Shown in pieces: positions 7,528 through 63,067 of a DNA stretch of 64,000 bases. How positions within the stretch are numbered: position 1 is the stretch's first letter; each line of letters opens with the position of its first letter. Source of the DNA: Candidatus Omnitrophota bacterium. GTDB lineage: Bacteria; Omnitrophota; Gorgyraeia; VGKH01; JBHPFN01. The position numbers and the translations under genes are program-made. The stretch spans positions 14,030 through 78,029 of the forward strand of contig JBHPFN010000002.1 of assembly GCA_042571725.1 (NCBI GenBank), read 5' to 3'. The notes under the pieces were generated by a model, which saw nothing but the letters and a program-made list of their open reading frames with translations, was not told the DNA's origin and searched no databases.

Positions 7528-7782
7528 ATGGGATTAGAAAAATTAACAGAAATGGAAAGAAAAGAAATTGAGTATTTTAGGAAATCAATTAAAAATTCTG
7601 TTATTGCTGGAGTTATTATGCTTGTTGTAGGTTTTGTCTTACACACGACGGCTATATTGACGAAAAACGCACAGCTGTCAATCGGTACTCCCGTATTAAT
7701 GATTATGGGAACCGTGTTTGCAGTTAGGGCGATGGAAAGCAATAAGTGGATAAAAATTATTGATATACTAACAAAGAATTGA
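7528..7782 (+). CDS. Small two-TM hypothetical membrane protein
   Basis: AAGGAGG lies 9 nt upstream of the ATG at 7528 (the track starts at the GTG at 7525). Two hydrophobic segments. Confidence 0.6.
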   Translation: MGLEKLTEMERKEIEYFRKSIKNSVIAGVIMLVVGFVLHTTAILTKNAQLSIGTPVLMIMGTVFAVRAMESNKWIKIIDILTKN

Positions 7783-7811
7783 TTTTCAGCAATAGTCATA
7801 GAGGAGGCAGG

Positions 7812-9506
7812 ATGTTAAAGCAAATTAGAAATATAATGATTCTTATGGTTGTCGTAATGCAGTTTAGTATTCTTTGTTGTGCCCAAAAGGACACAGCTAT
7901 AAGCGCAGAGAAGATTATGCAAAAAAGGCCCCGCGAAGATGGGCACTGCTTTGATTTTACACAAGTTGTGCCGAAAAATATTGTTAAGAGGATAAATGGC
8001 ATGTGGGGAAGGGCCTTTGAGAGTTCCGACATTGATTTTGTAATGCTGATTATTCCTTCGTTAGACAATAATTCCATTACAGAATACGCAGCAGAGTTAT
8101 TTACCAAGTGGGAAATCGGCAAAAGCACACAAGGTAAAAAAGGCATTCTTATACTTATTGCGATGCAGGAACAGAAGATCAAGATTGAGATTGGATATGA
8201 TTTGGAAGAGGTATACACCGATATGTATGTCGGACAGGTCGAGCGGGATATGCTCAAGGAGTTCTTAGAACAGGCTGATTGGGAAAGAGGTTTTTTTGGG
8301 ACGATTGAACATTTTATTGGAAGAATCTATTTAGCGGAAAAGAAAGGCATCATTGTTGATGAGATTGCTGCCGAGGACGATCAACTTAGGTATTATTCAC
8401 AAGGGGCAGGTGCAAAAAATGTATTTGATTTTGGCGCGGCTTTAAATAAGCCGATTCCAAAGGTTCCGGCGGAATTGCGCGCGTATTTTGGCGCTCAGCC
8501 CACCCCTGAGCTGGCGTTTCAACGTTACATGGAGAAAAATACAAAACTTATAGCTGATCATACACTTGATCTTTACACTGAAAGCTCGAAGGTGTTTTAT
8601 AGCAACTGGCGCACAAGCTCCGGTCAAATGCGCGGGGAAGCAGAATGGTTTGACGGAATTCCCTATGTGGTAAAACAGAAAGGAAAGTATGCGGTAGTTT
8701 TGTTTCCTTGCAATGGTGATGTTTGGGAATTCATGATGCACAACCCTTACTTTTTCTATCGAAGTGAAAAGGGCTGGCAGATTGATATTAACACTATGTC
8801 CCGATCGCTGATAATGGGTGCCCGTGGTGCCGATTGGCATTTCATGAGCAGGCTGCATCCGTATATGTTTGCTTTTGATGATTATGTTCTAACGAGGGAA
8901 CTTTATCTCCCTGATGAGGGCCAAAAGGCATTTTTGGGTTTGGGGTATAAGAGGAATATCAACAAACAGTATAATGCCTTTGAAATCTTTCCTGCCTACG
9001 AAGGACCCGCGAAGAAAGCAGGTGTTGAAAGCGGAGATATCTTACTTTCAATTGATGGTGAAAAGATTACAAAGCAGTTTCAAGACTGGGAGATGATGAA
9101 GCGCTATAACCCCGGGGATGTGGTAGTTGTGGAAGTTCTTCGCAATGGTAAGGGAAAAAACATAAAAGTACGATTGGACGAGGTACCTAAAAAGAAATAT
9201 CCTGAGGTAAAAAAAACGGGCGACGCCTGGTTTGGTTTTTATAGAGGATACTCGCAGCCGTATGAAAGAAAGATAACTGGACCCAGAACCACTGATTCTG
9301 TTCTTTATGTTGTTAAGGGAAGCCCTGCAGAGAAAGCGGGATTAAAGGAAAGGGACGTTATTTTTGATAAGGACAGCGATTTTATGTATGATGAAACTAT
9401 AAAGCCTGGCGATAAAGTCACCTTCGAGGTCCTGCGCGATCTGAAGAAACGCATAAAGATTACTATCACCGCCGGAAGCTATTCACCTGGGAAAGAGGGG
9501 ATTTAA
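7812..9506 (+). CDS. TPM-domain protein with the same middle domain as 2220-3893 and two C-terminal PDZ domains
   Basis: GGAGG RBS before the ATG at 7812, with a lipoprotein-like N-terminus (FSILCCAQ). TPM signature: ITEYAAELFTKWEIGKSTQGKKGILILIAMQEQKIKIEIGYDLEE. PDZ motifs: GPAKKAGVESGDILLSIDG and GSPAEKAGLKERDVI. Confidence 0.8.
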   Translation: MLKQIRNIMILMVVVMQFSILCCAQKDTAISAEKIMQKRPREDGHCFDFTQVVPKNIVKRINGMWGRAFESSDIDFVMLIIPSLDNNSITEYAAELFTKWEIGKSTQGKKGILILIAMQEQKIKIEIGYDLEEVYTDMYVGQVERDMLKEFLEQADWERGFFGTIEHFIGRIYLAEKKGIIVDEIAAEDDQLRYYSQGAGAKNVFDFGAALNKPIPKVPAELRAYFGAQPTPELAFQRYMEKNTKLIADHTLDLYTESSKVFYSNWRTSSGQMRGEAEWFDGIPYVVKQKGKYAVVLFPCNGDVWEFMMHNPYFFYRSEKGWQIDINTMSRSLIMGARGADWHFMSRLHPYMFAFDDYVLTRELYLPDEGQKAFLGLGYKRNINKQYNAFEIFPAYEGPAKKAGVESGDILLSIDGEKITKQFQDWEMMKRYNPGDVVVVEVLRNGKGKNIKVRLDEVPKKKYPEVKKTGDAWFGFYRGYSQPYERKITGPRTTDSVLYVVKGSPAEKAGLKERDVIFDKDSDFMYDETIKPGDKVTFEVLRDLKKRIKITITAGSYSPGKEGI

Positions 9507-9508
9507 TC

Positions 9509-11221
9509 ATGTGTTCCAAAAACAATAAAAGGGTTATAAAATTCGCAATTATAATCTTAGGGATTTATATAATGTTACCTCAGCAAGCTTATGCTTCAGG
9601 ATATCATCCGCCGTTTGATCAGGCTGTTAAAGAGGCTGAGCTGATTGTGTTAGGAGACGTTATCGAGGCCTGGGATCCGAAAGCAAAACAGGATTCGGAA
9701 AGGTTTGATTTTTCTGAGGGGAGAGCGTATCGCATGCGCGTCGAGAAGGTGTACAAGGGCGACGTAAAAGCAGGAGATGAAATAATCTTTTGGGATGCCC
9801 ATTATATGAGTACGGCAAGCTACCATGTCAGTGAGGGCAATAAAAATTTAACCTTCCTTGTTCCAGCCGAATTGTCGGAATTTGAAAAAAGGCATTTTCA
9901 ATTTGGAACTCCCGAACTTTATCGTCCCATCACAAACTGTAATCAGGAATATGATTTTGATATTGGAGAGTATCAAGGGTATCTTTATCTTCTGGATCTG
10001 ACGCTCATGAATCCCCCTGAAGATCTGCGTCCAACATATACTAAGATCTTAAGGGAAGAGAATAATCGATATGTTCTCAGGTATGTCTTTGAGCATTGGC
10101 CTGCAGAATTGACTCAGGAGGATATTCTGCTCTTTCGAGAAACCTTTAATAAACACTATCAAGACGCCTATGTCACGAATCCGGCCATTGAACGGCTTGC
10201 CCTTCAGGGAGAATTTTTCGATGATACAAACTTAAGACAGCTTCTTAAGGAAGGAAGTTCTTACCAGAGAATGGAACTTTTGGCAATGGTAGATGCTAAG
10301 AATATTAAATCAGTTGAAGATATTCTTTTTGATTGGATCATGGAAGAAGAAAGAAATCTTGGTGAGCAAGAGAGCATTGAGATTCTTGCCGATCTTTCTC
10401 CGGAGTATTTAAGAAAGCAGCTCAGCAACCGAAAAATACCTTTTTGGAAATTAATCCCTTGCCTGCAGGCGCTCGAGATTAACGGAAGCGATGTTGGAAA
10501 GGAAGATTTTAGTCCGGAAATCCTTGCGTTAGATCCATATACGATCAGCAATATCGGTGAGGTCTATAGCGGAAAGGATTTCCATGGAATTTGCGCCATG
10601 GATTATATTCAGGAGTTAGAGTCTGATTTCGATGTGATCTGGGGATATTCTAGAGAGCGCGAGAAATGGAAGACGGCACTTCCTTTATTTGAGCCACTTT
10701 TGAAAAAACCTGACAGCCCCATACGAAGATTAGTAGTTGCATTAATGAGGACATATGGCCTTACTGTAGTAAGAGAAGGGGATGGTTATGTTGTTGACCG
10801 TAGCAAAACATCAGCTTCTCCACCTGTTAGGCTAGAAATTGAAGCACCGAAAGAACCTTTTCAACTCGGCGATTCTTTAAAACAATTGAGAGTAAAAGAA
10901 ACTGCAATAGCGGATGGAGCGTGGTTTTCTTTCAATGGCAGTTTGAGTTGGGCAGTTCGGGAAGATGATGGAGGCACTGCTGGTGGCGGTGGTACATTCG
11001 GCATTTTCGAGAACGTTGATATTCCAAAAGATAAATTTGTTCAACTAGAAGAAGGACAGACATTCTATTCTTCAGATTCTCTCGGATGGAGTATGAGTCG
11101 GCCGGGAAGATATTATGCATCGGTTTCTAAAGTGTATCCGCACGACGGAGCAAGCGTAGGCCTCGATGCCTGGACAGGAACCGTATTTTCCAACACAGTA
11201 GAAATAGAAGTGGTGGAATGA
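9509..11221 (+). CDS. Large exported hypothetical protein
   Basis: 570-aa intact ORF starting 2 nt after the upstream stop. Signal-peptide-like N-terminus (FAIIILGIYIMLPQQAYA|SG). No family recognised. Confidence 0.7.
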   Translation: MCSKNNKRVIKFAIIILGIYIMLPQQAYASGYHPPFDQAVKEAELIVLGDVIEAWDPKAKQDSERFDFSEGRAYRMRVEKVYKGDVKAGDEIIFWDAHYMSTASYHVSEGNKNLTFLVPAELSEFEKRHFQFGTPELYRPITNCNQEYDFDIGEYQGYLYLLDLTLMNPPEDLRPTYTKILREENNRYVLRYVFEHWPAELTQEDILLFRETFNKHYQDAYVTNPAIERLALQGEFFDDTNLRQLLKEGSSYQRMELLAMVDAKNIKSVEDILFDWIMEEERNLGEQESIEILADLSPEYLRKQLSNRKIPFWKLIPCLQALEINGSDVGKEDFSPEILALDPYTISNIGEVYSGKDFHGICAMDYIQELESDFDVIWGYSREREKWKTALPLFEPLLKKPDSPIRRLVVALMRTYGLTVVREGDGYVVDRSKTSASPPVRLEIEAPKEPFQLGDSLKQLRVKETAIADGAWFSFNGSLSWAVREDDGGTAGGGGTFGIFENVDIPKDKFVQLEEGQTFYSSDSLGWSMSRPGRYYASVSKVYPHDGASVGLDAWTGTVFSNTVEIEVVE

Positions 11222-11329
11222 CAGTCGCTCGCACGCAGGCTTTATTAAACAGTATTGACAAAGCTATTGAAATATTCGGAGGGAAGATTTGATGTCAATC
11301 CTCTATAAAAATAAGATAAAGGGGGAGTG

Positions 11330-11562
11330 ACACCCAAATGTTCAATAGAATGGGTGTTGAATTTCTGCACCCAGCGCGTTAACTACACCCAGCGTGCTAA
11401 ATAGGAGGTCTTGTACTCACTGATATAAAATAGCTGAGTGCTATAGGGTGCTGCACCCACTAATGTAAGAAATCTGGGTGCTAGCTAATGCAAAGGAGGG
11501 TAGCACTCAGCTTGTTTAGCACTAGTGAGTGTAGCACCCTCCCAGATTAAAACAGGGGGTGC
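11330..11562 (+). repeat. Array of about 6 tandem hairpin modules (GCACYCA / 12-16 nt loop / TGRGTGC) in the leader of 11572-12075
   Basis: Read directly, e.g. acaccca-aatgttcaatagaa-tgggtgt and gcaccca-ctaatgtaagaaatc-tgggtgc. One further unit, gcaccc-tcccagattaaaaca-ggggtgc, lacks the WTGTAR loop motif but is counted among the ~6 units of this array. Confidence 0.8.
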
Positions 11563-11571
11563 AAAATTCTA

Positions 11572-12075
11572 ATGGAGAAGAGAAAGTTACTTAGGGTGAC
11601 AAAATTCATATTTCTATTTCTTATTTTTATTGCGTCCAGCGCGTATGCTCAAACTACACCCGAGGAACTAGCTGCCCATTTAGCAGAAGCTATTAAAACA
11701 AACGATATTGAGGCTTTTGAAGCTCTGGTTCATCCACAAAGCTTGGAGTATTTAAAAGAGCATGACTTGGAGCAATTTAATAGAATTATAAAATATGGCC
11801 TTCTTGGACAAACCATAGAAAAAGATTATGAGATTAAAGTTTCTGACACAGCTGAGGAGAAGGAATATAATCTTCAACTCAACAGGTTGGAAATTAGAGA
11901 TAAATTTTTTATCTTTCCAGTTAAACCAAAGTATTATTTAAAAATTAGAAGTGTAACTAGGGATGAAGCTTTAAAGCTTACTAGTAAACATACTGTCGCT
12001 CGCTATTATATCGGCGAAGAGGAAGGAAGATGGTATATAATCTTAACAACGGAATCAGGCACTTTAGAGGAGTAA
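11572..12075 (+). CDS. Small exported hypothetical protein
   Basis: Signal-peptide-like N-terminus (MEKRKLLRVTKFIFLFLIFIASSAYA|QT). It shares the aaaattcTAATGGAGAAGA start context with the gene at 6410. Confidence 0.7.
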   Translation: MEKRKLLRVTKFIFLFLIFIASSAYAQTTPEELAAHLAEAIKTNDIEAFEALVHPQSLEYLKEHDLEQFNRIIKYGLLGQTIEKDYEIKVSDTAEEKEYNLQLNRLEIRDKFFIFPVKPKYYLKIRSVTRDEALKLTSKHTVARYYIGEEEGRWYIILTTESGTLEE

Positions 12076-12103
12076 TATTTTGGGCGTCTTTAAACGAGAC
12101 AAT

Positions 12104-12265
12104 ACACCCAGCAATGTAAGCGAGCACTCAGCGTGTAGGATAGGGAGTGTTGCGCCCAGGATGTAAATTAGGGGGCACTAAGCGTTGCTCCGCCGAAGGC
12201 GGGGCTACACACAGCATTGTAAAACGAGGGTGTGTTGCACTCACTAATGTAAAATACCTGAGTGC
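12104..12265 (+). repeat. Array of about 6 hairpin modules, including one CCGCC-GAA-GGCGG module, in the leader of 12278-12763
   Basis: Read directly: gcactca-ctaatgtaaaatacc-tgagtgc, gcgccca-ggatgtaaatta-gggggc, acacaca-gcattgtaaaacga-gggtgtgt, ctccgcc-gaa-ggcgggg. Confidence 0.8.
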
Positions 12266-12277
12266 TAAGGAGGCGTG

Positions 12278-12763
12278 ATGGAGATTAAAATAATGAAGAA
12301 AAGGGATAAAGATTTTTGGATTAGTAAGCATAAAGAAAGAAAAAATATTGCACTTGGATTTCTTTTTAAAGATGAACACATAGCTTTTGAATTATCTTAT
12401 AAGCAATGGAACTTATTTTTAAGGCTTATTAAGCTAACTAAAAGCAAAAAAAATCTTCCTAAAGGTGAGGATGCATTTCAAGGTATTAATTTGGATACAG
12501 GTAAATTGATGTATTTCAGTTTGAAAGTGCAACAGCTTATTCTCAAAACAATTATGAAAGAAAGTAAGGGTAGAATACCTCAAAATAAAGCAAGCGTTTG
12601 GAACAAAAGATATGTGAAAGATATTAAGAATAATTTTATGGCTAAGGAAATGCACATAGTAAAAAATGATGTTGTGTTGACCATATCAAGAAAGAAATTC
12701 CGAAGACTTTGCGAATACTGCCTAAACCAAAAAAACTTTATTATTATATCAGAGATATATTGA
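12278..12763 (+). CDS. Lys-rich hypothetical protein with no signal peptide
   Basis: TAAGGAGG RBS before GTGATG (ATG at 12278). Intact ORF, no family recognised. Confidence 0.6.
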   Translation: MEIKIMKKRDKDFWISKHKERKNIALGFLFKDEHIAFELSYKQWNLFLRLIKLTKSKKNLPKGEDAFQGINLDTGKLMYFSLKVQQLILKTIMKESKGRIPQNKASVWNKRYVKDIKNNFMAKEMHIVKNDVVLTISRKKFRRLCEYCLNQKNFIIISEIY

Positions 12764-12950
12764 ATTTACCTCACCCACCCCAAAGTAAAGCCTGCCTGCC
12801 GCCTGCCTGTCGGCAGACAGGGCAGGCAGGGAGCAGTTCAGCGCCCATGAGCTTAAAGAATAGTGGGTGCAGCACGGAGCGGAGCGAGGTGACACCCAGC
12901 ATGGAAAAAATAGCGGGTGTTACGTTCAGAATGAAAGCGAGGGAACGTTA

Positions 12951-13361
12951 ATGGAGAAGAAATTGCGATATTACATTTTAAATCTTTTTGTCATTGCTTT
13001 ATTTTTTTCAAGTCTGGTTTATGCGGCTACTCCTCAAACAATATGCGCAGTAATCTTTGGCATTACTATTGGAGAGAAGGGAGAATTGTTGGATGTTAGA
13101 ATAAGCAAGGTTATTGATGCATCTTCCGGCTCGACTGATGCAATAGAAGTTGAGATCCCTGATACGTATTTTGCGAATGCAAAAGCAAAGATTGAAAACC
13201 ATGGATACGAACCTGCATTGGAAAACGGAAGACCCAAAGAGTTCTTTACCTACTTTTATTATGATGCTAATCGGCCGGATGTAGTCATAGATGATACAAA
13301 GCTAATAGAATCTAAAGTCGTCCCGATTCGAGGCAGCAATTTGAAAAAGGAAGAGAGATGA
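12951..13361 (+). CDS. Small exported hypothetical protein (weak TonB-C-like pattern)
   Basis: I prefer the internal ATG at 12951 (MEKKLRYYILNLFVIALFFSSLVYA|AT). The 5' extension in the track runs through the repeat mosaic. The TAATG stop/start context is as at 6410 and 11572. Confidence 0.65.
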   Translation: MEKKLRYYILNLFVIALFFSSLVYAATPQTICAVIFGITIGEKGELLDVRISKVIDASSGSTDAIEVEIPDTYFANAKAKIENHGYEPALENGRPKEFFTYFYYDANRPDVVIDDTKLIESKVVPIRGSNLKKEER

Positions 13362-14023
13362 AGCTAAAATATATTTTAATTTTTTTAACCATCGCTTTTA
13401 TTGTAAACACTGTGCTTTGTTTTTTCGTTCTTCCCGGGATAATGCCTGATTACTATAGGGCAGATTATGATTTTCCAGAAGATGATATTCGAAAAAGCAT
13501 TTCGGGGATTTTCTTTCCTGTCAAAGAAGCAAAGCTATATGAAGCTTCTGATGTATCTTTGGTTCAACCCATTGGAATATTGACTGAGCCAGTTACCTTT
13601 TCTGGTGACAGACATCAAGTAAATGACGTTCTGATGAGGATTGTTTTGGATGAAAAACACGATGCCTATGTATCCCGTTCCGATTTGCGATATTTACCAT
13701 CTGGTGACAAAACTAGTTCCCAATCAATAGACTTGGTCCTTAAAAACAGGCTTCCCGATGGAAAGTATTATTCTGAAGAAGCTAGGTGGAGCGCTAGATC
13801 CATTGAAGAGGGTATCTCAAGAGTAACCGTTGTGTATGATGATTTTACTGATTATACTTATAAATTTATCTATGATACTGACGGAGAAAAGATTTGGTCA
13901 GTCAAAAAGAGGGGTCCCTGGAGTTTTATAGAATACATATGGTTTTTGTATTTAATTATAACTAATGGGGGAATTGTTGTGTTGGCGGGTGTAGCAATTC
14001 ACTCTAGAAAGAAGTTCAAGTAA
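13358..14023 (+). CDS. Hypothetical membrane protein (N- and C-terminal TM helices)
   Basis: ATGA overlap with the upstream gene. Hydrophobic N-terminus and C-terminal WFLYLIITNGGIVVLAGVAI. Confidence 0.65.
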   Translation: MKLKYILIFLTIAFIVNTVLCFFVLPGIMPDYYRADYDFPEDDIRKSISGIFFPVKEAKLYEASDVSLVQPIGILTEPVTFSGDRHQVNDVLMRIVLDEKHDAYVSRSDLRYLPSGDKTSSQSIDLVLKNRLPDGKYYSEEARWSARSIEEGISRVTVVYDDFTDYTYKFIYDTDGEKIWSVKKRGPWSFIEYIWFLYLIITNGGIVVLAGVAIHSRKKFK

Positions 14024-14087
14024 AGCGCAATTTCAGAAGGAGAAACTTAATGTTTAACGTACGTAAAAATAAAGCTAAGGAGGAACA

Positions 14088-14285
14088 ATGGAATTCTTGG
14101 AATTGTTAGCAGGCTGGGCTAATTTTCTTTTCCCGTTGTTGCTGGTTGGTTTTCTTCTCTACTATATCGTATTTATAAGAAGAAAGCGCGAAAAAAGGTA
14201 TTATGAGGTGGTAGAACGAAGCCTCGCCCAGGGAAAAGAACAGGTAGAGGTTTTGAGAGAAATCAGAGATTTGCTTAAGAAATGA
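14088..14285 (+). CDS. 65-aa single-TM hypothetical protein
   Basis: AAGGAGG RBS 6 nt upstream. One TM helix followed by a charged tail. Confidence 0.55.
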   Translation: MEFLELLAGWANFLFPLLLVGFLLYYIVFIRRKREKRYYEVVERSLAQGKEQVEVLREIRDLLKK

Positions 14286-14340
14286 TCTTGCCCGCCTTAA
14301 AGTGAGGGCTTAGCCCGTTTCGCTTACGTGTTACGGGCTA

Positions 14341-14506
14341 GCACCGAGCGAAGCGAGGTGAGCAATGTAAAGAAGGGGGTGTGGAAATGACACCCATAAT
14401 GTATACGACGGGGTGCTGCACTCATATTGTCAGGTAGTAGTAAGTGCTGTGCTCCCTATTGTAAAATATAGGAGCGCTGTACCAAAAATGTAAACTAGGG
14501 GGTACT
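14341..14506 (+). repeat. Array of hairpin modules (1 GAGCGAAGCGA-loop module and about 4 GCACYCA-type modules) abutting the GTG start at 14507
   Basis: Read directly: caccgagcgaagcgaggtg; acaccca-taatgtatacgac-ggggtg; gcactca-tattgtcaggtagtag-taagtgc; gctcc-ctattgtaaaatat-aggagc; gtacc-aaaaatgtaaactag-ggggtac. Confidence 0.75.
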
Positions 14507-15382
14507 GTGAGAAAACTATTACTCGTTTTAGCGTTTTGTTTATTAGCTACTTCTGTGTTTGCTCAAACATCAGTTATTTCTGGCAGGGTTGAGCTTCCAG
14601 AGGTCGATAAAGAAGGGAATCTATTTATAAAGTTTTCACCTGCAGGTCAGTTTCTTTCCGCCCCTGAAAGCGAGCGCTATTTTACCGTGATAAAGAAAGA
14701 AGATATCACATCACACAAAGTACCATACAAAATCGAGGTTGTTCCTCCAGGTAAATATTGGGGGTTTTGCACCTGGGATATTGCTGAATTTTTCTGGGAG
14801 CCATCATGGGGAGAAGGCAATTGTCCTGCGTATGAAGGAGATTATACTGGAGGCACTCAAGAGTTGATTGTTATTCAAGAAGGAGAAACCTTAGAAAATA
14901 TTGATTTTGAGTGCAAGAATTATCTTGGACAGACTGAGAAAAGCGGTTATCAGGCTGCGTACAAAATCCTCGATATCCGATACGAGAAAAACACTGAGAA
15001 CAATGAGCCCAAGATTCTTGTTAGGATTAAAAACATTGATACAAAACCTATCGGCGAGATATGGATGGGTTGTTTTATCAATGGCGAAGAAACGTTTGAT
15101 TTCAGCGTTTTTGATCTCGAGGATTTACTAGAGCCAGGGGAGCAAAGAGAATTTGATATGACGTATTGCTACACCGATACGTATCTTTCGCATCGCTTTG
15201 ACGAAGAGACGCTGAGGCTGAAAGATGCCGGCCCCTCTGTGTATGAATTGGATATTAAATTGGTCTCCAACGACAACGATGAGGTTTTTGAAAAACACAT
15301 TACCGTAACCGATGTTAAGCCAAGGATGATAAAAGAAGTTCTTGAGAGCGGTATGAATTATTACGAAATTATTTGGGAGTAA
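14507..15382 (+). CDS. Exported hypothetical protein
   Basis: GTG start, signal peptide MRKLLLVLAFCLLATSVFA|QT, 291-aa intact ORF. Confidence 0.7.
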   Translation: MRKLLLVLAFCLLATSVFAQTSVISGRVELPEVDKEGNLFIKFSPAGQFLSAPESERYFTVIKKEDITSHKVPYKIEVVPPGKYWGFCTWDIAEFFWEPSWGEGNCPAYEGDYTGGTQELIVIQEGETLENIDFECKNYLGQTEKSGYQAAYKILDIRYEKNTENNEPKILVRIKNIDTKPIGEIWMGCFINGEETFDFSVFDLEDLLEPGEQREFDMTYCYTDTYLSHRFDEETLRLKDAGPSVYELDIKLVSNDNDEVFEKHITVTDVKPRMIKEVLESGMNYYEIIWE

Positions 15383-15492
15383 ATATCGACAATTCCAACA
15401 GCAATATAAGCGACACCCAGGATGTAAAATAGAGGGTGTTGCCCCGCCAAAACCTGCCTGACGGCAGTCAGGGGCGGGGCTAAGGAAAAGAG

Positions 15493-15924
15493 ATGAAAAA
15501 TAGACTGTTTTTATCAATAATGATAATCTTATTAATGCCTGGCTTTGCGCTTTCGGATGTTATCGTTGAAATTCCAATACAATCAGAAAATAAAGAGGAA
15601 ATTGGATTTGACTTTCATATATCAAGTTATACGTATGAATCTACTGTCGGGCTAACCATTTCCTTTCAACCAACTGAAAAATTGAAGACGCTTTCAGAAA
15701 TTAGAGTTGAAGCGAGAAGATTTAATCAATTACTCTTTAACATTCCTTTAAAGATAGAAAAGGAAGAGGATGGATCGTTAGTGGGTGAATTTTCTGTCAG
15801 GAGAAACCTATTAGAGGAGACTAAGATTATTTTGATATGCGGTGACCCACTTTATCAATATTCAATTAGTCTTAAAAGCCAAGTAACACCCGCCTTCTCT
15901 GAAGTAAAGGAGCGCCTAGAATGA
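15493..15924 (+). CDS. Small exported hypothetical protein
   Basis: Preceded by CCCCGCC...GGCGGGG-CTAAGGAAAAGAG-ATG. Signal-peptide-like N-terminus. Confidence 0.65.
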   Translation: MKNRLFLSIMIILLMPGFALSDVIVEIPIQSENKEEIGFDFHISSYTYESTVGLTISFQPTEKLKTLSEIRVEARRFNQLLFNIPLKIEKEEDGSLVGEFSVRRNLLEETKIILICGDPLYQYSISLKSQVTPAFSEVKERLE

Positions 15925-28658: not shown

Positions 28659-30077
28659 ATGAAACATCATTGTCCACAAATCTGCATAGAGAAAGTTCCT
28701 AAGATACACTTAGATGAGTTTTTGCGGCAGCAGACCGAGCGCATCGGCAGCCGGCTTAGGCTAGTAGCAGCGCTTTTTATCATAACCTTTTTCGCTGGCA
28801 GCATAGCCACTCTTATTACATTAAAGGAAGATGTAAGTAGCGCGCTTATTGTTGCTTGGATTCTTTGTGTGGGCTGTAGTACTGCCGCGTTTGTGTTATC
28901 CAAAAAAACTACTACGGTAGGCCTGGCAAAATTGAATGCCACCATCGTAATGACAATCATCATTGCCGAGATGACATGGTATCATATTACCACAGGTGTA
29001 ACACCCTTTGAGACGGCAATGACGTTTATATTTATGCTCATTGGTTTTTCTCTTATTTTTCCCTGGTTTCCGAAAGAGACTATCGGTGTACTTGCGTTGC
29101 ACCTAGCGGGTTTTGTGATTTACCTGGTTGCAACTCCGACGTATTTCTATAAAGGTGCTATTGTAGCAACGGAATTAACCGACTTCTTGCAGGGAATCAT
29201 TACCATGTGCTCATCTACTATTATGTGTTTCTTCTTAAGCAAGTTTGAACGCAAACGAGATATAGAAAATTTTGTCCTGCTTAAAGAGGTAGAAAGCAAA
29301 AACAGACAGATGCAAACCGAATTGGAAATGGCCACCCGCCTTCAGCAGCGATTGGTGCCAAAATCGGTCAGCACTGACCTTGCTGATATCGCGGTGACGT
29401 ATTTACCGGCCAGCTATATGAGTGGCGACTACGCAAAGCTGCATTTTGTTGACAAAAATAAACTGCTTTTTTTACTCTGCGATGTTACCGGCCACGGAGT
29501 TTCTGCGGCGTTTTTAGTCAACACTGTCCACACCCAGCTAGAGCGCTTAATAAAAGAAGAGAAAGAGCCCGGGGCGCTCCTTAACGAGCTCGATAAGGTT
29601 GTGGTGGAGGATTTTAAGGAAACAGGAATGTTTCTAACGGCGTTTTGCGGCCTGTTGGATTATGCCAAAAAAAGATTTGTCTATTCTAGCTACGGACACC
29701 CTCCGCAGTATATCTATCGGGCAACTGACTCTGATATCACACGGCTTAATTCTCAAACTACCCTTTTAGGCATTCCTTTTAGCGATGACAGCGTGTATCA
29801 AAACGAAGTACCGTTTAATAAGGGAGATCAAATACTACTTTTTACCGATGGGGTAATTGAGACCAGAGACCGGCAGGGCCAGGAGTTCGGAGGTGAGAGG
29901 CTTGAGGATTTTATACGTAACAACGATTCGCTTGGCGTTGAGCCCTTCAACCAAAAGCTGATTGATGCATTAAATCTGTTCAAGCAAGGAGAATTCAAAG
30001 ACGACGTCTTTATACTTAATATGAAGATAAAATCGCCGCAGAGAACTATAGACGCCCTACGCAAAGTCTTTAAATAA
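28659..30077 (+). CDS. Multi-TM sensor fused to a SpoIIE/PP2C-type serine phosphatase (RsbU-like)
   Basis: About 6 TM helices, then LQQRLVP........YLPAS.MSGDY.....D...L.FLLCDVTGHGVSAAF......, F.TAF.G.LD, LFTDGV.E. Confidence 0.8.
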   Translation: MKHHCPQICIEKVPKIHLDEFLRQQTERIGSRLRLVAALFIITFFAGSIATLITLKEDVSSALIVAWILCVGCSTAAFVLSKKTTTVGLAKLNATIVMTIIIAEMTWYHITTGVTPFETAMTFIFMLIGFSLIFPWFPKETIGVLALHLAGFVIYLVATPTYFYKGAIVATELTDFLQGIITMCSSTIMCFFLSKFERKRDIENFVLLKEVESKNRQMQTELEMATRLQQRLVPKSVSTDLADIAVTYLPASYMSGDYAKLHFVDKNKLLFLLCDVTGHGVSAAFLVNTVHTQLERLIKEEKEPGALLNELDKVVVEDFKETGMFLTAFCGLLDYAKKRFVYSSYGHPPQYIYRATDSDITRLNSQTTLLGIPFSDDSVYQNEVPFNKGDQILLFTDGVIETRDRQGQEFGGERLEDFIRNNDSLGVEPFNQKLIDALNLFKQGEFKDDVFILNMKIKSPQRTIDALRKVFK

Positions 30078-30148
30078 TCTCACCTACACAACAACTTTTT
30101 CTTAGGTATCTAACTTATTTATTGACAAACAGTTATGAGCACATAAAG

Positions 30149-30168
30149 GTGGGAAACCCCCACTTTTT
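30149..30168 (+). terminator. Weak intrinsic terminator candidate after the SpoIIE gene
   Basis: gtggg-aaacc-cccac followed by TTTTT. The stem is only 5 bp. Confidence 0.4.
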
Positions 30169-30196
30169 CGCCCCTTTCTATGACCTTGTCTAGGGC

Positions 30197-30224
30197 TTGA
30201 AAACGGCCTATTTCGTGATATACT
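30197..30224 (+). promoter_or_regulatory. Sigma70-type promoter for the riboswitch/pseudopilin operon (TTGAAA-N16-TATACT with TGn extended -10)
   Basis: ttgaaa at 30197-30202 and tatact at 30219-30224, preceded by tga. It places a transcription start about 10 nt before the aptamer. Confidence 0.55.
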
Positions 30225-30240
30225 TTTAATAGAGAAATAA

Positions 30241-30340
30241 ATGCCTACTGACACTGGCAAACCCCGCGTAAGCGGGGGGCGCAAAGCGACAGCTCCTTAA
30301 AAGACACCTTTTAAGGAGGGCTGCGTTACCAAAGAGGCAG
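30241..30340 (+). ncRNA. c-di-GMP-I (GEMM-I) riboswitch aptamer
   Basis: ACUGGCAAACC-CCGC-GUAA-GCGG-GGGGCGCAAAGC-[11-bp hairpin ctccttaaaag/cttttaaggag]-GGCUGCGUUACC matches by eye the conserved GGCAAAC / GNRA hairpin / G(A)CGCAAAGC / second hairpin / GUUACC order of the V. cholerae Vc2 aptamer as I remember it. Possible P1: tgcct 30242-30246 with aggca 30335-30339. Confidence 0.8.
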
Positions 30341-30375
30341 ATGAATAGCGGTTTGAAAATATGTAGTTACATAAA

Positions 30376-30403
30376 CCCTGGAGAAATCTGCCAGGGTTTT
30401 TTT
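30376..30403 (+). terminator. Intrinsic terminator forming the riboswitch expression platform
   Basis: ccctgg-agaaatctg-ccaggg followed by seven T. ggcagat (30336-30342) is complementary to atctgcc (30386-30392), which gives an alternative antiterminator pairing. Confidence 0.8.
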
Positions 30404-30455
30404 AGTTGCGAAAACATAAAATTATGGTAAGATATTGAATTACAAGGAGATTGAC

Positions 30456-30866
30456 GTGAAGCTTAAAAACGCTAAAGGAATGACATTAGTAGAAATCCTA
30501 GTTGCGGCGTTTATATTCGCTATAGCACTAGGGCCGCTGTTGCAGAGTTTGACAGGTGAACTTTTCCTGATTGACCTTGCTAAGGGCCAGACGAGAGCTA
30601 TTTTTGATTCAAGAAACATGATGGAGGCAATTAAAGTGACACCATTTGCGAATATGACTACACTTTTTGAAGATGGCACGGTTGACGGTCCGGCAGCCAA
30701 TAGGTATGACTCCTTAGTAGGTGGATATAGCCTGCCAGGTGAGCATATAACGGTAACGTATGCAGACATTGCTACGGATCCGCTCGAAATAGAAGTAGAG
30801 GTAGCCTGGCAGGATAGGCGCGGCCAGGTACGTAGCGTATCAGCATTTACGTTTAAAACGAGGTAA
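30456..30866 (+). CDS. Minor pseudopilin (GspI/PilV-like) with prepilin-type N-terminal cleavage/methylation motif
   Basis: GTG at 30456 sits 6 nt after AAGGAG. The leader VKLKNAKG|MTLVEILVAAFIFAIALG has Gly at -1, Glu at +5 and a hydrophobic helix. Confidence 0.8.
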   Translation: MKLKNAKGMTLVEILVAAFIFAIALGPLLQSLTGELFLIDLAKGQTRAIFDSRNMMEAIKVTPFANMTTLFEDGTVDGPAANRYDSLVGGYSLPGEHITVTYADIATDPLEIEVEVAWQDRRGQVRSVSAFTFKTR

Positions 30867-30873
30867 GCACGAC

Positions 30874-31458
30874 ATGCGTAGCCTTAGACACAATAAGACT
30901 TCTGGATTTTCACTGATGGAAATATTAGTGGCCAGCGCAATTTTAGCCTTAGTCATGGGGGCGCTCTCAAGCATTTATATTTCCGGATTAGATGTATGGG
31001 AAAGCGGCACCAACCAGGCAGACCTGCAGGCACAAGCCAGGGCAGCCTTAAATTACATGGTTGCAGAGTTGAGAAACGCAACGAGGACTTCTTCTCAGAA
31101 CCCATCTCCCAATCTCTCCATTCCGTCCGTACCGAATAATAAACAGATACATTTTTATCTCCCAGGAGATAAAGACGACGATGGCTTTCTCACCGATGCA
31201 AACGGAGATATTGAATGGGTTACCAATAGCCAGATACACTACCAGTATATCCCCGGGCAGAAGATGTTGCGTCGCTCAGTAGGCGGAAACCATAGGATTT
31301 TTGCAACCGATGTATCGGATGTGGAGTTTGAGGATATCACCGTAGACCCAACACTGGCTCTCAACGAATTGAGAATTATTTTAACCATAAGCAAAACAAC
31401 TAAGAAACAGAAAACAGCTGAAATTACCGTATCTTCGATCGTGGCATTAAGAAATTAA
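30874..31458 (+). CDS. Minor pseudopilin (GspJ/PilW-like) with prepilin-type N-terminal motif; paralog of the minus-strand small genes
   Basis: ...NKTSG|FSLMEILVASAILALV. The C-terminal ...VSSIVALRN matches SSVALRN / SSVSLRN of 56563-57324, 59870-60526 and 63068-64000. Confidence 0.8.
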   Translation: MRSLRHNKTSGFSLMEILVASAILALVMGALSSIYISGLDVWESGTNQADLQAQARAALNYMVAELRNATRTSSQNPSPNLSIPSVPNNKQIHFYLPGDKDDDGFLTDANGDIEWVTNSQIHYQYIPGQKMLRRSVGGNHRIFATDVSDVEFEDITVDPTLALNELRIILTISKTTKKQKTAEITVSSIVALRN

Positions 31459-31471
31459 CAGGGAGCATCAT

Positions 31472-33118
31472 ATGTTTTGTAATCGGGTTTTACTGCATGG
31501 GAAAAAAGCGCAAGCACTAGTTGTGGTCTACATGGTAGTGGCTGCCTTTACCGTACTGTGCGTTGCCCTGTTATCCAAGGCGATCAACGAAAGGAATCTT
31601 GCCCTGCGAAATAGGCTGGAGCACGAGGCATTTTATCTGGCAGAAGGGGCTATAGAAGACGCGATAGCGCAGTTTAGTAGCGCGATTGCGAATTACCAAA
31701 TCCAACCGGATGCAAATTTTAATACCAGCACCACGTTTACTATGTTTGGCTCAGAGGTGATCAATTCCACCATTACCGACATTGAAGGTGCTGATCGTCC
31801 AGAGACAGAAGGTGAAACGAATATATTGGTAAGAAACTTTCAAATTACTGCTACGGCAGTGCATCCTGAGAATAACGAGATATCTGTAACGCTGCATCAG
31901 ATTATCGCGCGCAGGCTCATCCCAACCTTTCAACACTCGGTATTTTATGATGATGACTTAGAGATGTTGCCCGGGCCCGATATGGATTTAAGCGGCAGGA
32001 TCCACTGCAACGAGGATATTTATGTGGACGCAGGAAACGGAAGCGTTTTGACCATTGATTCAACATCCTTTCACTCCGCCGGCAATATCTATAACCAAAG
32101 AAAAGACACCGGTGCTGAGGATGGCGGGGAAGTGTCTATCCGCGTAACAAAGCCGGGTGCGCCCCAATACGAAGATATGGATAATTTAGACAGCGAAGTC
32201 CCCACATGGACGGTTGATGCTACAACCCGCTGGCAGGGCACGGTGCGAAGCGCGGATCACGGAGTGACTGAGCTTACTGCACCCTCAGTAGCTTCAATCC
32301 AACCCGATGGGTATTATGCAACCAATGCCGATGTGATTATCGAGAACGGCGAGATTCGCAGAAACGGTGTTTTATTAGTAGAAGGCACTGATTATCCGGT
32401 CGATACTATTAAGACGACGAATTCTTTTTATAATAATAGAGAAGAGCGATTGGTTAAAATGACAGAGATAGATTTAAGAAAGTTGGCTGGTTATGAGCCA
32501 GGAGATCCTGAGGGCAGCCCGACTTTCGCCACAAGCATACTGCCGCCAAACGGTCTGCTGTATGCCACCAGGGATGATGCCGGAGCGGTTCGTCAACCCG
32601 GCATTAAATTAGTAAACGGAGAAAAGATATATCAAAACATCGGGTTAACCGTTGTGTCAAATGATCCGGTATATATTCAGGGAGATTATAATACTGATGA
32701 TGAGAAGCCGGCTGCGGTGATCTGTGATGCGTTAAACTTGCTTTCCAACAACTGGGATCCGGATGATACAGAGAGCACAAGCAGCTTAAATAATCGAATG
32801 GCTGATGAAACAACGTTTAACACTGTCTTTGTTGCCGGTATAGATACGACAACGCCCGGCGTTCAGTATAACGGCGGTTTAGAAAATTATCCCAGGATGC
32901 ATGAGAATTGGTCCGGCATAAATCTAAATATTAAAGGCTCTTTTGTAGCCTTGTGGAATAGCGCTATCGCAACCGGTGAATGGGTCTATGGAAATCCGCA
33001 ATATACCGCACCCCGGCGTAACTGGCAGTATAATACTGATCTTAACGATACCAGTAAACTTCCTCCCTTTACCCCCTGGGCTGTTGAAGTAGAGCGCGTT
33101 GCCTGGTGGAAAGAATAA
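31472..33118 (+). CDS. Large PilX-N-terminal-like / GspK-like pseudopilin-associated protein
   Basis: N-terminal hydrophobic helix followed by ...NERNLALRNRLEHEAFYLAEGAIEDAI (PilX_N-like). Shares PVYIQGDYN...PAAVI..A...LS with the CYL.GNYN...PSAVI motif of the minus-strand giants. Confidence 0.7.
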   Translation: MFCNRVLLHGKKAQALVVVYMVVAAFTVLCVALLSKAINERNLALRNRLEHEAFYLAEGAIEDAIAQFSSAIANYQIQPDANFNTSTTFTMFGSEVINSTITDIEGADRPETEGETNILVRNFQITATAVHPENNEISVTLHQIIARRLIPTFQHSVFYDDDLEMLPGPDMDLSGRIHCNEDIYVDAGNGSVLTIDSTSFHSAGNIYNQRKDTGAEDGGEVSIRVTKPGAPQYEDMDNLDSEVPTWTVDATTRWQGTVRSADHGVTELTAPSVASIQPDGYYATNADVIIENGEIRRNGVLLVEGTDYPVDTIKTTNSFYNNREERLVKMTEIDLRKLAGYEPGDPEGSPTFATSILPPNGLLYATRDDAGAVRQPGIKLVNGEKIYQNIGLTVVSNDPVYIQGDYNTDDEKPAAVICDALNLLSNNWDPDDTESTSSLNNRMADETTFNTVFVAGIDTTTPGVQYNGGLENYPRMHENWSGINLNIKGSFVALWNSAIATGEWVYGNPQYTAPRRNWQYNTDLNDTSKLPPFTPWAVEVERVAWWKE

Positions 33119-33576: not shown

Positions 33577-34878
33577 ATGCTGAAAATAAATATAATCGTG
33601 CTATTTATCGGCGTAATGCTGGGTTTAAATATTGCCCGGTTGTTCGTTAGGCGGATGTCTTTTTCCAAAGAGGACGTTGATGAAAAAACGCCATTTGTTC
33701 CTCCACCGCATATTGTACAGTCTTCCTCTGCGCAGACAGAATCGGAAGCGGAGCCTAAGGTTGAAGATCCTACCGTTCTTGAGAAGAAGATATTATATGA
33801 AGAAGAGTTGATGCGGCTCTTAAAGATCGAGCAGGAGATTTCTTCAAAACTCCAAATAGGAGAGATTGCGCGCATTATCGTAGAGAACGCAATAAAGATT
33901 TTTAATGCTGAGAAATGCGCCTTGCTTTTGTACGATACAGAAACAAAGGAGCTGCGATTAGCCTACAGCATTGGTATCTCCGAGAGAGATATGCAAAAGA
34001 CACACGTGCGCCTCGGCGAAGGTATTTCAGGCCGGACGGCGGAAAACAACGAAATGCTGATTCTAAATAATCTAGAAAAAGAAGCAGGCCTTAGCAATGA
34101 TGACTGCGAGTATTATTATAGCGGGCCATTGGTCAGCGCTCCCTTGTCCATAAAAGGTATCGTAGCAGGCGTTATTAATATCGACCGCAAAAAGACAGGA
34201 GCGCCGTTTGACAATGACGATGTACGGTTTTTGCGGGGGCTTGCGATTCAAGCTGCCATCGCCATACAAAATGCAAGGCTCTACGAAGAGGTGCAAGAAG
34301 GCTACTTACGCACCATCACCGCACTCGCGCAAGCCCTGGATGCGAAGGATCCCTACACCCACATGCATTCTGAGAACGTCACCAGGTATTCGGTTGCTAT
34401 CGCAGAAGAGATGAGCCTGCCGCTATCAGAGATAGAAAAGATAAGAAGAGGTGGTTTGCTACACGATATCGGTAAGATAGGCATCAAGGATGATATACTC
34501 ACCAAACCCGGTAAGTTGACCGATGAGGAGTTTGAGCAGATCAAAACCCATCCCGCTAAAGGAGAGGGAATCTTGCGTTCGCTGCCGTTTTTGCAAGATG
34601 TTGCGGAGATCGTGCGGCACCACCATGAACGCTACGGCGGCGGAGGGTATCCTGATAAGCTCAAAGGGTACCAGATAGAACAGGGAGCAAAGATTATGGC
34701 TGTTGCAGATGCCTTTGATGCAATGACCTCCGATAGGCCGTACCGCAAGGCCTTAAGCCTGGAAAAAGCTACCGACGAGCTTAAGCGTAACAGCGGGTCG
34801 CAGTTCGATCCGGGAGTGGTAGATGCATTTCTCAAAGTCCTCGAGCGCAACCCCAAGATTCTCGAAACCCCTGCATAG
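33577..34878 (+). CDS. Membrane-anchored GAF + HD-GYP domain protein (putative c-di-GMP phosphodiesterase)
   Basis: N-terminal TM, then a GAF-like region (CALLLYD...LRLAYSIG). HD-GYP landmarks: H...V..Y...IA, LLHDIGKIGI, HHERYGGGGYP, AD.FDAMTSDRPYR. Confidence 0.85.
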   Translation: MLKINIIVLFIGVMLGLNIARLFVRRMSFSKEDVDEKTPFVPPPHIVQSSSAQTESEAEPKVEDPTVLEKKILYEEELMRLLKIEQEISSKLQIGEIARIIVENAIKIFNAEKCALLLYDTETKELRLAYSIGISERDMQKTHVRLGEGISGRTAENNEMLILNNLEKEAGLSNDDCEYYYSGPLVSAPLSIKGIVAGVINIDRKKTGAPFDNDDVRFLRGLAIQAAIAIQNARLYEEVQEGYLRTITALAQALDAKDPYTHMHSENVTRYSVAIAEEMSLPLSEIEKIRRGGLLHDIGKIGIKDDILTKPGKLTDEEFEQIKTHPAKGEGILRSLPFLQDVAEIVRHHHERYGGGGYPDKLKGYQIEQGAKIMAVADAFDAMTSDRPYRKALSLEKATDELKRNSGSQFDPGVVDAFLKVLERNPKILETPA

Positions 34879-44339: not shown

Positions 44340-44373
44340 CCTGCCGCGTTTATTTCTATCATTGTACATAACC

Positions 44374-46308
44374 ATGGGAAGAAAAAAACAGAAAAGACAA
44401 GACAGAAGAAAGTACATTCGGCTTAAAAGTGTTTTTCCTGTTGAGTTTCGGGTAGTTTCAGACACTGAGCCGCGTTGGCAGCAGGGCTTCACTTCGGATG
44501 TAAGCACCGATGGTATATGTTTAAAGATTAACAATGCCGACGAACAATACCTGCAGGATATTTACCGAGGGGGAATGCGGCTATCGCTGCGAATTGATAT
44601 TCCGCTTACGGGCAAAGGCACAAACGCGCTTGCCAAAATTACCTGGATACGTAAAGAAAAAGACGCTCCTATTAATCGATATGCAGTAGGCCTTGAGTTT
44701 GTAAAGGTTGACCCCGCAGAAGCCTATCGGATGGTGCGCTATGCCAGGCGGCTACGGAGTTCGGGAAGGTTGGCATTCTATTGTGTTTTTATCGTCGGAT
44801 TGTATGCTAGTTTTATGTATGTTAACAATGTAGAGATGCGCTATGAAAACCAGGACTTAGTGCAAAAGTTAGTTAACAGCGTGCGGCAAGAGGAGGTTCT
44901 TGAGGGGAATTTGCAGAAACTTTCCAGGGAAAAGGAAAACGCCGAAGATCAAATATTGGCTTATGGTGAGCGCGCAGCATTCTTAGAAAAGAAGATTACC
45001 GAGGTGCAGATCAGAGGAGACGAGCGTCTCGAGAAAGAGGTATCGGATTTGAAAGAAGAATTGTCTCTGGCTAAAAAGGAAAAAAAGAAAATAGAAAAAG
45101 AGCTCTTAGAAGCAGAAAGAAAAACAAAAGAAATCCAAGATTCGCTTGTTTCAATAAAGCAAGAAAAAGAGGTTCTTAAAAAAGCTACGATAGAGAAGAT
45201 GTATACGTGGCTTTCGATTCATCAAAACCCCCGCACGGGCCTGGTTATGAGCTTTGAAGGCGATCAGCAGGTAGGCGACTGGGCATTCATCTATGACCAA
45301 TCCTTGGCAGCGCAGGCGTATCTTTTATTCGACGACACCGAGCGGGCTAAAAAGATATTTAATTTTTTCCAAAGGACAGCACCGGAGACCTTCGAAGGAT
45401 TTGCTAATGCCTACTTTGCGAGTTCTGAGGACGTTGCAGAGTATTCGGTGCACGCAGGGCCCAATATTTGGGTGGGCATTGCGTTGTTGCAGTATTTTCA
45501 TAAAACCTCAAGCGATGAATATATGCCTTTGACAAAAAAAATTGCCGATTGGCTTATTGCGTTTCAAGAACAAGATCCCGAGGGAGGCATACGGGGAGGC
45601 CCTAAGGATCGATGGTTTTCTACTGAGCACAATTTAGATGCCTTTGCGTTTTTCAGCATGTTCTATGAGATTACCGGTGAGCAAAAATATAATCTGGCCA
45701 GAGATAAAGTCCTCCAGTGGGTCGTGGCACACGCCTATGACAAAACAGAGGTACCTATCAAGCGCGGCAAGGGAGACGCTACCATCGCTACCGATACCTA
45801 CGCCTGGTCAATCGCTGCATTGGGTCCTAAGCTCCTCAAAAAAGTAGCAATGGACCCTGATGAAATTATTACATTTGCAGAGGAGAATTGCGGCGTACAG
45901 GTAAACTATGAGCGCTCCAATGGAGAGGTAATTGCTGTCAAAGGATTTGATTTTGCAAAATACAGAAACATGCCTCGGGAAGGCATCATTTCAACAGAAT
46001 GGACAGCGCAGATGGTGCTGGCGTTTAAGATTATGCAGGAATATTACCGTACGAGTAATGATGTAGTAAAGAGTGAATACTATGCGGGAAAATATTCTGA
46101 TTATGTAAGCGAACTGGAGAAGCTGGTTATTTCTTCCCCGTCTCCGACCGGGCAGGGAGAAGGTTGCTTGCCGTACGCAACAGAAGACGATGTAGATACT
46201 GGCCACGGCTGGAGGACACCGCGAGGAAAATCAACCGGTTCCTTGGCGGCAACGGCGTATACAATCTTTGCCCAAAAAGGATATAATCCTCTGCAGCTGA
46301 AAAAATAA
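44374..46308 (+). CDS. PilZ domain - TM - coiled coil - large C-terminal alpha-helical domain fusion protein
   Basis: RRKYIR (RRxxxR) and DVSTDG (DxSxxG) PilZ c-di-GMP-binding motifs. One TM (LAFYCVFIVGLYASFMYV), a K/E-rich coiled coil and about 370 aa of uncharacterised C-terminus. ATG at 44374 is preferred over TTG at 44362. Confidence 0.75.
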   Translation: MGRKKQKRQDRRKYIRLKSVFPVEFRVVSDTEPRWQQGFTSDVSTDGICLKINNADEQYLQDIYRGGMRLSLRIDIPLTGKGTNALAKITWIRKEKDAPINRYAVGLEFVKVDPAEAYRMVRYARRLRSSGRLAFYCVFIVGLYASFMYVNNVEMRYENQDLVQKLVNSVRQEEVLEGNLQKLSREKENAEDQILAYGERAAFLEKKITEVQIRGDERLEKEVSDLKEELSLAKKEKKKIEKELLEAERKTKEIQDSLVSIKQEKEVLKKATIEKMYTWLSIHQNPRTGLVMSFEGDQQVGDWAFIYDQSLAAQAYLLFDDTERAKKIFNFFQRTAPETFEGFANAYFASSEDVAEYSVHAGPNIWVGIALLQYFHKTSSDEYMPLTKKIADWLIAFQEQDPEGGIRGGPKDRWFSTEHNLDAFAFFSMFYEITGEQKYNLARDKVLQWVVAHAYDKTEVPIKRGKGDATIATDTYAWSIAALGPKLLKKVAMDPDEIITFAEENCGVQVNYERSNGEVIAVKGFDFAKYRNMPREGIISTEWTAQMVLAFKIMQEYYRTSNDVVKSEYYAGKYSDYVSELEKLVISSPSPTGQGEGCLPYATEDDVDTGHGWRTPRGKSTGSLAATAYTIFAQKGYNPLQLKK

Positions 46309-53940: not shown

Positions 53941-54006
53941 CGTAATCACGCTCCTTATAAGTTTATGCGTATGTCCAAGCTCGGTATAACCTAAGCCTGT
54001 TTATAA

Positions 54007-56529: not shown

Positions 56530-56562
56530 CGTAATCACGCTCCTTTGTAGCAGCAAGGCCTG

Positions 56563-57324: not shown

Positions 57325-57346
57325 GCTTTTTCTTTCCTTTTCACCT

Positions 57347-59836: not shown

Positions 59837-59869
59837 GAACATCATATCCTTCGCAGGTAGAGCCCCCGG

Positions 59870-60526: not shown

Positions 60527-60531
60527 CGTTT

Positions 60532-63036: not shown

Positions 63037-63067
63037 GGCAATCATCTCCTTTTGTTGTGGTCGCAAG

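Follow-up and report, generated by a model that had tools for sequence, protein, structure and literature searches.

A predicted c-di-GMP-I riboswitch ahead of a three-gene minor-pilin set in an Omnitrophota bacterium

Which signal does the leader in front of three prepilin-type genes of an uncultured Omnitrophota bacterium sense, and would it turn these genes on or off? The locus lies in the window (the whole 64-kb stretch of DNA that was analysed), and a previous sequence-only reading had proposed that a c-di-GMP-I riboswitch with its own promoter shuts off a pseudopilin operon of the I-J-K type at high c-di-GMP. Our analysis leads to a similar view. With a probability of roughly 70%, the leader of this three-gene minor-pilin operon is a c-di-GMP-I riboswitch that is OFF at high c-di-GMP, where ligand binding and direction are predicted, and so is the function of these pilins as a priming or tip complex. 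As a genetic element it is a textbook GEMM-I terminator riboswitch, real, well formed and unsurprising, of a class (RF01051) known from the archetypes Vc2 (Vibrio cholerae) and Cd1 (Clostridioides difficile, transcriptional OFF before flgB). Unlike these archetypes, it is hosted by an uncultured Omnitrophota bacterium and its target is a minor-pilin set.

Promoter and aptamer of the leader

The leader and its flanks comprise the following features:
30148-30172, plus strand: terminator-like hairpin with a T-run (terminator scan), 3' of the SpoIIE/PP2C gene 28659-30077
30197-30224, plus strand: sigma-70-type promoter, with TTGAAA at 30197-30202, a 16-nt spacer, TATACT at 30219-30224 and the extended -10 TG at 30216-17
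30242-30339, plus strand: c-di-GMP-I (GEMM-I) aptamer (Rfam match, MFE pair table, R2 model, covariation)
30242-46 with 30335-39 and 30248-49 with 30333-34, plus strand: P1 (MFE)
30257-58 with 30281-82, plus strand: G-C clamp (MFE)
30262-67 with 30272-77, plus strand: first hairpin, GUAA loop at 30268-71 (MFE)
30285-30303 with 30308-30327, plus strand: second hairpin, long, with a GG bulge (MFE)
30444-49, plus strand: ribosome-binding site AAGGAG, 5' of the GTG start at 30456

The upstream gene (28659-30077) encodes a SpoIIE domain (E-value = 2e-42) and the hairpin at 30148-30172 is predicted to insulate the riboswitch transcription unit from it. The promoter TTGAAA-N16-TATACT, already noted in the sequence-only reading, is present with 10/12 matches plus the TG and is the top-ranked promoter-like site within 29500-31000; transcription would start from it at ~30231-30233 (about 30232). 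A TGTTATACTT-type -10 is also found 20-35 nt 5' of the aptamer in six related loci (L063, L001, L080, L083, L085, and L021). The minus-strand ORF 30102-30284 had been dismissed as spurious, rightly so, as it is only a mechanical 60-aa ORF with a TTG start.

Scanning of the whole 64-kb window with Rfam 15 at gathering thresholds led to a single match, at 30247-30334 on the plus strand, belonging to clan CL00126 (61.5 bits, E-value = 4.4e-12). The top model was RF03167 (c-di-GMP-I-GGC; gathering score 59, hence a margin of 2.5 bits) and not RF01051, which has to be read with the clan competition of Rfam in mind, as it suppressed a lower-scoring match of the same clan and thus hides the RF01051 score; RF03167 was also on top when the stretch was searched without P1. 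The shorter RF03167 model probably scores higher because the CUAAG/UAUG 11-nt tetraloop-receptor consensus of RF01051 is missing from the second hairpin of the window element and the first loop is GUAA instead of GAAA. RF03167 belongs to the same clan as the window element and resembles it in its short second hairpin and explicit P1, but differs at the position of A47. Specifically, its consensus reads GACGCGAAgCc (RF01051: GACGCAAAgCc), while the window carries GGCGCAAAGCG, so that A30283 stands opposite the variant G (GCAAAG in the window, GCGAAG in the model). The G that defines RF03167 is therefore missing, and an A occupies this position in the window and in all 16 related leaders. The GGC variant is said to have been defined by Weinberg et al. 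in 2017, and none of the other papers naming RF03167 makes a statement about its ligand.

Aligned to the Rfam consensus, G30256, A30283 and C30329 are the equivalents of G20, A47 and C92, the canonical c-di-GMP triad. In this triad, A47 stacks between the two guanines of the ligand. In Vc2 numbering, G20 contacts one ligand guanine, C92 pairs with the other, and the backbone phosphate of A47 contacts the ligand 2'-hydroxyl (PMC5888326). The remaining cores (GGCAAAC, ACGCAAAG, and UUACC) and the two hairpins closed by P1, the first of them GNRA-capped, are likewise those of RF01051 aptamers. The landmarks listed by the sequence-only reading occur in the order given there (GGCAAACC, CCCCGC-GUAA-GCGGGG, GGCGCAAAGC, the long second hairpin, and CGUUACC).

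The leaders of the closest relatives were assigned to RF01051 directly (gathering score 35), reaching 66.7 bits for L030, 64.6 for L038, 59.8 for L085, 58.8 for L039, 52.4 for L083 and 51.9 for L080, while the two leader copies of L001 scored 45.3 and 48.1 bits. A covariance model (R2) was built from seven such sequences of Omnitrophota relatives passing RF01051, with the window left out, and its score serves as a proxy for the hidden RF01051 score. It recovered the window element with 78.4 bits (E-value = 3.7e-25), the next-best match in the window having 11.6 bits. Together with the clan match above the gathering score, this upholds the class proposed earlier, with the qualification that, inside the clan, Rfam itself prefers the GGC model although the variant nucleotide is absent. 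We conclude that the element at 30247-30334 is, on the grounds of its predicted contacts and fold, an aptamer of the c-di-GMP-I (GEMM-I) family, canonical and not GGC, and that it is predicted to bind c-di-GMP. Annotation pipelines deserve some caution here, since clan competition in Rfam can give the name GGC to a canonical c-di-GMP-I aptamer without the variant nucleotide.

Concerning structure, unconstrained MFE folding of 30240-30342 already shows the GEMM-I fold in full (-42.7 kcal/mol, z = -4.65), and none of 200 shuffles equalled its energy. It consists of P1 and two hairpins with the GNRA-type GUAA on the first, and the relatives have this same fold as their consensus. When 16 Omnitrophota leaders were aligned, 91% of the cells were paired and 11 of the 19 pairs showed double changes; the covariation score was 0.42, compared to 0.02-0.14 with the partners slid by 1-3 columns, and it was reached by 0/500 shuffles. 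This alignment was fitted to the covariance model. An independent MAFFT/RNAalifold alignment of eight sequences led to the same helices, with compensatory changes in 10/19 pairs. Such changes across relatives indicate that the structure is under selection.

Expression platform and direction of switching

Between the aptamer and the first start codon, folding revealed two competing structures:
30373-30403, plus strand: intrinsic terminator, stem 30373-83 with 30388-99, U7 at 30397-30403 (folding)
30336-30392, plus strand: predicted composite antiterminator (prefix and constrained folding, complementarity test)
30336-42 with 30386-92, plus strand: its outer helix, GGCAGAU with AUCUGCC, 7 bp
30346-48 and 30350-53 with 30374-77 and 30378-80, plus strand: its inner helix, sequestering the 5' strand of the terminator
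30360-64 with 30369-73, plus strand: its apical hairpin (folding)

The terminator starts 34 nt beyond P1 and is strong, as had been claimed (-14.7 kcal/mol, z = -4.64 for 30373-30399 plus U7), and it was missed by a simple terminator scan because its upper stem carries a bulge. GGCAGAU (30336-42) is the perfect complement of AUCUGCC (30386-92), in agreement with the earlier proposal; when the 21-nt segment following the aptamer was shuffled 20000 times, only 143 of the shuffles contained a 7-nt complement to the terminator. Because the GGCA of the outer helix is the 3' strand of P1, P1 and the antiterminator exclude each other, and constrained folding bears this out. In a transcript reaching 30392, the antiterminator state is favored over the P1 state (-56.0 versus -49.3 kcal/mol), while at full length it stands at -59.1 against -58.5 kcal/mol for P1 plus terminator. 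As these full-length states are roughly equal, the energy of ligand binding would tip the balance toward P1 and termination, i.e., an OFF switch. The OFF reading is also the natural one because terminator and aptamer have no nucleotide in common, which means that closure of the aptamer cannot block the terminator. The leader is most likely a transcriptional OFF switch, the direction being predicted in silico from a terminator placed between aptamer and start codon and an antiterminator incompatible with the ligand-bound aptamer. Cd1 follows the same intrinsic-terminator platform and OFF logic, the latter predicted for our element.

The proposed course of events would be as follows. Transcription would start at about 30232 and the first ~110 nt would adopt the canonical fold of a c-di-GMP-I (GEMM-I) aptamer. 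Bound c-di-GMP would hold P1 (30242-49 with 30333-39) shut, the GGCA of its 3' strand would be occupied and the antiterminator could not close, leaving the hairpin 30373-30399 and its U7 to terminate transcription ~50 nt 5' of the first start codon. Without ligand, GGCAGAU 30336-42 would pair with AUCUGCC 30386-92 and lock the inner helix onto the terminator 5' strand, and RNA polymerase would read through into the prepilin genes.

Some properties of the platform temper this scheme. The outer antiterminator helix has only 7 bp, five of its bases lie in the loop and not in the stem of the terminator, and with full-length states so close in energy the direction of the switch hinges on kinetics. 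The antiterminator rests on the thermodynamic folding of a single sequence, its GGCAGAU segment being shared only by L085. A pattern scan of metagenomes for closer relatives of the exact leader gave only a duplicate of L085, and the antiterminator therefore has no support from covariation. Among relatives, an intrinsic-terminator-like hairpin directly follows the aptamer in 9/9 leaders examined and a run of at least five U is present in 8/9; in L044 the interrupted tract AUUUGUUU comes after the hairpin. For L085, folding predicts an antiterminator in which the first aptamer hairpin contributes its 3' strand and the terminator its 5' strand, which is another pairing with the same OFF logic.

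The minor-pilin set behind the leader

Three genes follow the leader:
30456-30866, plus strand: gene 1, 136 aa, GTG start at 30456, prepilin with the N-terminus KG|MTLVE, GspI/XpsI/PilV-like
30874-31458, plus strand: gene 2, 194 aa, prepilin with the N-terminus SG|FSLMEILV, minor (pseudo)pilin
31472-33118, plus strand: gene 3, 548 aa, hydrophobic N-terminal helix without Glu5, pilin-type sheet, beta-solenoid

Genes 1 and 2 both present the prepilin signature G|(F/M)xxxE with a hydrophobic helix and both pass the cutoff of the Pfam N_methyl domain (E-value = 7e-7 and 2e-6, respectively). The product of gene 1, whose orthologues are 136 aa long, matches the NCBIfam XpsI model along residues 7-125 (E-value = 7.5e-7), although its 29 bits compare to a cutoff of 150, and it scores 21 against a cutoff of 44 with the GspI model. 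Gene 2 has weak N-terminal NCBIfam matches, including one to Verru_Chthon cassette protein C. Gene 3 harbors no Pfam domain and its N-terminal helix lacks Glu5, as in GspK/PilX-type proteins. Its product has a 100% identical counterpart in a Candidatus Omnitrophota genome, and its homologues number more than 600, most of them from Omnitrophota. The AlphaFold model (pLDDT 83, pTM 0.82) consists of a 70-residue N-terminal helix, a pilin-type sheet and a beta-solenoid. Searching with this fold against the PDB gave ComZ of Thermus thermophilus (6qvi_B, E-value = 3.5e-7) as the sole significant match, while at the sequence level none of the three proteins had a significant match among PDB chains; the C-terminal part partially matches HpsA (E-value = 5.5e-27). 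ComZ has been proposed as a pilus-tip-associated DNA receptor (PMC6561018), and the cyanobacterial beta-solenoid PilX as a "tip plug" in core minor-pilin complexes that prime filament assembly (bioRxiv 10.64898/2026.02.12.705559).

The GspJ and GspK models matched none of the three proteins, which places the set outside the curated Gsp families. The label of a pseudopilin I-J-K-like operon thus describes the prepilin-type genes and their organisation fairly, while family membership falls away and the fold of gene 3 is nearer to ComZ/PilX than demonstrably to GspK. Based on its modelled fold, gene 3 is a predicted tip subunit of the ComZ/PilX/GspK-like kind, and the three genes together have the appearance of a minor-pilin set for priming or for the tip. 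A large Glu5-less beta-solenoid subunit preceded by two small Glu5-bearing prepilins is also the pattern of GspI-J-K, PilV-W-X, ComZ, cyanobacterial PilX, and HpsA with its pseudopilins, but unlike these named sets the window proteins reach no curated family cutoff. Among the window ORFs examined, none was recognisable as a gene for a major pilin, an ATPase, a platform protein or a secretin.

Where the regulated unit ends on its 3' side is uncertain, since the stretch from 33118 to the next gene showed no hairpin terminator and that gene has its own -10 element, TGCTATAAT. About 460 nt 3' of the riboswitch-controlled genes, the window encodes a GAF-HD-GYP protein (33577-34878, plus strand), a likely c-di-GMP phosphodiesterase, and given the missing terminator after the pilin genes, read-through may extend the regulation to this gene. 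A 648-aa PilZ-domain protein is encoded further downstream (44362-46305, plus strand). With these two proteins, c-di-GMP signalling is present in the organism, by way of effectors and a likely phosphodiesterase, a context in line with a leader sensing c-di-GMP.

Distribution, alternatives and biological meaning

Each species was represented by one genome, and in this set the sequence upstream of the cassette was long enough for a judgement in 51 Omnitrophota loci. A c-di-GMP-I aptamer precedes the first prepilin gene in seven of them, at a distance of 1.04-1.2 kb from the 548-aa gene in six and of 1.9 kb in L063. The aptamer is also present at two further loci whose flanks are short, which brings the share of the examined Omnitrophota species with the leader to about 15%, about 85% of the orthologous cassettes lacking it. 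It is present in three of the four closest metagenomic relatives and was found in front of homologues from other phyla in 0/14 loci. These figures derive from covariance-model searches, which replaced a strict pattern match to the core of the aptamer that had retrieved only the window and L063 and missed real homologues like L001. The neighbourhood of the cassette differs between genomes, and some cassette versions seem to take the leader along with them. As the earlier reading had it, the minus-strand array at 51-64 kb of the window is devoid of such a leader. The only match there, at 57535-57450 on the minus strand, has 11.6 bits (E-value = 0.075), lies inside a coding region and was discarded as a second aptamer, being probably due to chance. 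This weak match is situated 84 nt before a prepilin-like ORF (57366-56563, minus strand), in the 3' end of an 832-aa ORF, and has no second hairpin.

Other readings of the leader have to be weighed against an OFF switch sensing c-di-GMP. The operon could answer a different signal if the aptamer were a c-di-GMP-I-GGC variant with another ligand, or a 3'3'-cGAMP sensor like the GEMM-Ib riboswitches of Geobacter, for which Kellenberger and Nelson, both in 2015, are said to have identified A20 as the determinant. In its favor, clan competition picks RF03167 not only for the window but also for L063 and L044, and the L001 leader at 5661-5745 has an A at the G20 position. The window, however, has G30256 where the cGAMP sensors have A20, and A30283 (as the same position in the 16 relatives) where the variant has its G, while sister leaders are assigned to RF01051, all of which makes this an improbable explanation. 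By comparison, a leader that has lost its function and is merely carried along with a mobile pilin cassette would fit the patchy distribution and the differing neighbourhoods mentioned above, but the contact triad, all helices, promoter, terminator and antiterminator are intact and the compensatory changes across relatives speak for selection on structure, so decay seems very improbable indeed.

A c-di-GMP sensor acting in the ON direction, or on translation or RNA stability, is rather unlikely in our opinion. The near-equal energies of the full-length states and an antiterminator without comparative support leave room for it, and a c-di-GMP riboswitch of C. difficile turns type IV pilus genes ON (PMC6366702). 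That element (Cdi-2-4, before pilA1) likewise combines a c-di-GMP riboswitch and a terminator platform on type IV pilin genes, but it is of class II, with an unrelated fold and a different architecture, and it acts on the major pilin (PMC6366702), while ours is of class I, is predicted to be OFF and precedes only minor or tip pilins. The terminator of the window is separate from the aptamer and only the aptamer-open state offers it a competitor, namely the 3' strand of P1; as the main model, an ON switch was rejected for this lack of overlap. Concerning translation, the ribosome-binding site at 30444-49 lies 40 nt past the U-tract, and no pairing of it with leader sequence was found. The c-di-GMP-I OFF switch is thus retained as the main reading.

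Such a switch would offer a testable regulatory link between c-di-GMP and the composition of the pilus tip in Omnitrophota, an uncultured phylum. A full-text literature search yielded no paper describing a riboswitch in it; just three papers mention both "Omnitrophota" and "riboswitch", in no case in the title or abstract. It is commonly expected that c-di-GMP promotes adhesion, and the predicted direction, with the pilus-tip set off at high c-di-GMP, runs opposite to that expectation. Type IV pili are common in Omnitrophota, with attachment to host cells as their proposed role (PMC10066038).

Concerning related loci, L001 bears two near-identical tandem leaders of aptamer and terminator, at 2707-2791 and 5661-5745, each in front of a separate prepilin cassette of three genes (158/216/543 aa and 162/177/501 aa). 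The A at the G20 equivalent of the second copy is accompanied by a compensatory C-G at the adjoining clamp pair, while the first copy and L080 have a G, and from these sequences the two copies could differ in their specificity for cyclic dinucleotides. A broader and speculative idea, which we regard as rather doubtful, is that Omnitrophota hold interchangeable tip or priming cassettes, each with its own cyclic-dinucleotide riboswitch, so that messenger levels and not protein regulators would choose the priming tip complex, with high c-di-GMP turning the present set OFF. If this were true, a second messenger would pick the tip of a type IV filament in ultra-small, possibly host-dependent Omnitrophota cells, the response would be the opposite of the C. 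difficile paradigm, and the tandem G/A leaders of L001 hint that c-di-GMP and cGAMP would select different tips.

Some further features were recorded along the way. On its plus strand, the window encodes two TPM-domain paralogues at 2220-3893 and 7779-9506, of which one also has TPR repeats and the other a PDZ domain, and the ORFs following them (9509-15924) gave no Pfam match. The array at 51382-63892 on the minus strand consists of four proteins of ~830-855 aa without a Pfam domain, interleaved with proteins of 218-274 aa, among which the one at 63071-63892 harbors a pretoxin-HINT domain and the one at 57366-56563 a prepilin-like N-terminus. In related loci, matches to the cspA thermoregulator lie 5' of the cassette in L035 (2419-2689, minus strand) and L065 (2415-2693, minus strand), and group I intron matches a few kb 3' of it in L008 (8295-8519, 75 bits) and L009 (6222-6453, 72 bits). 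Finally, a TPP riboswitch is located immediately 3' of the homologue of the 548-aa gene in L065 (5718-5828).
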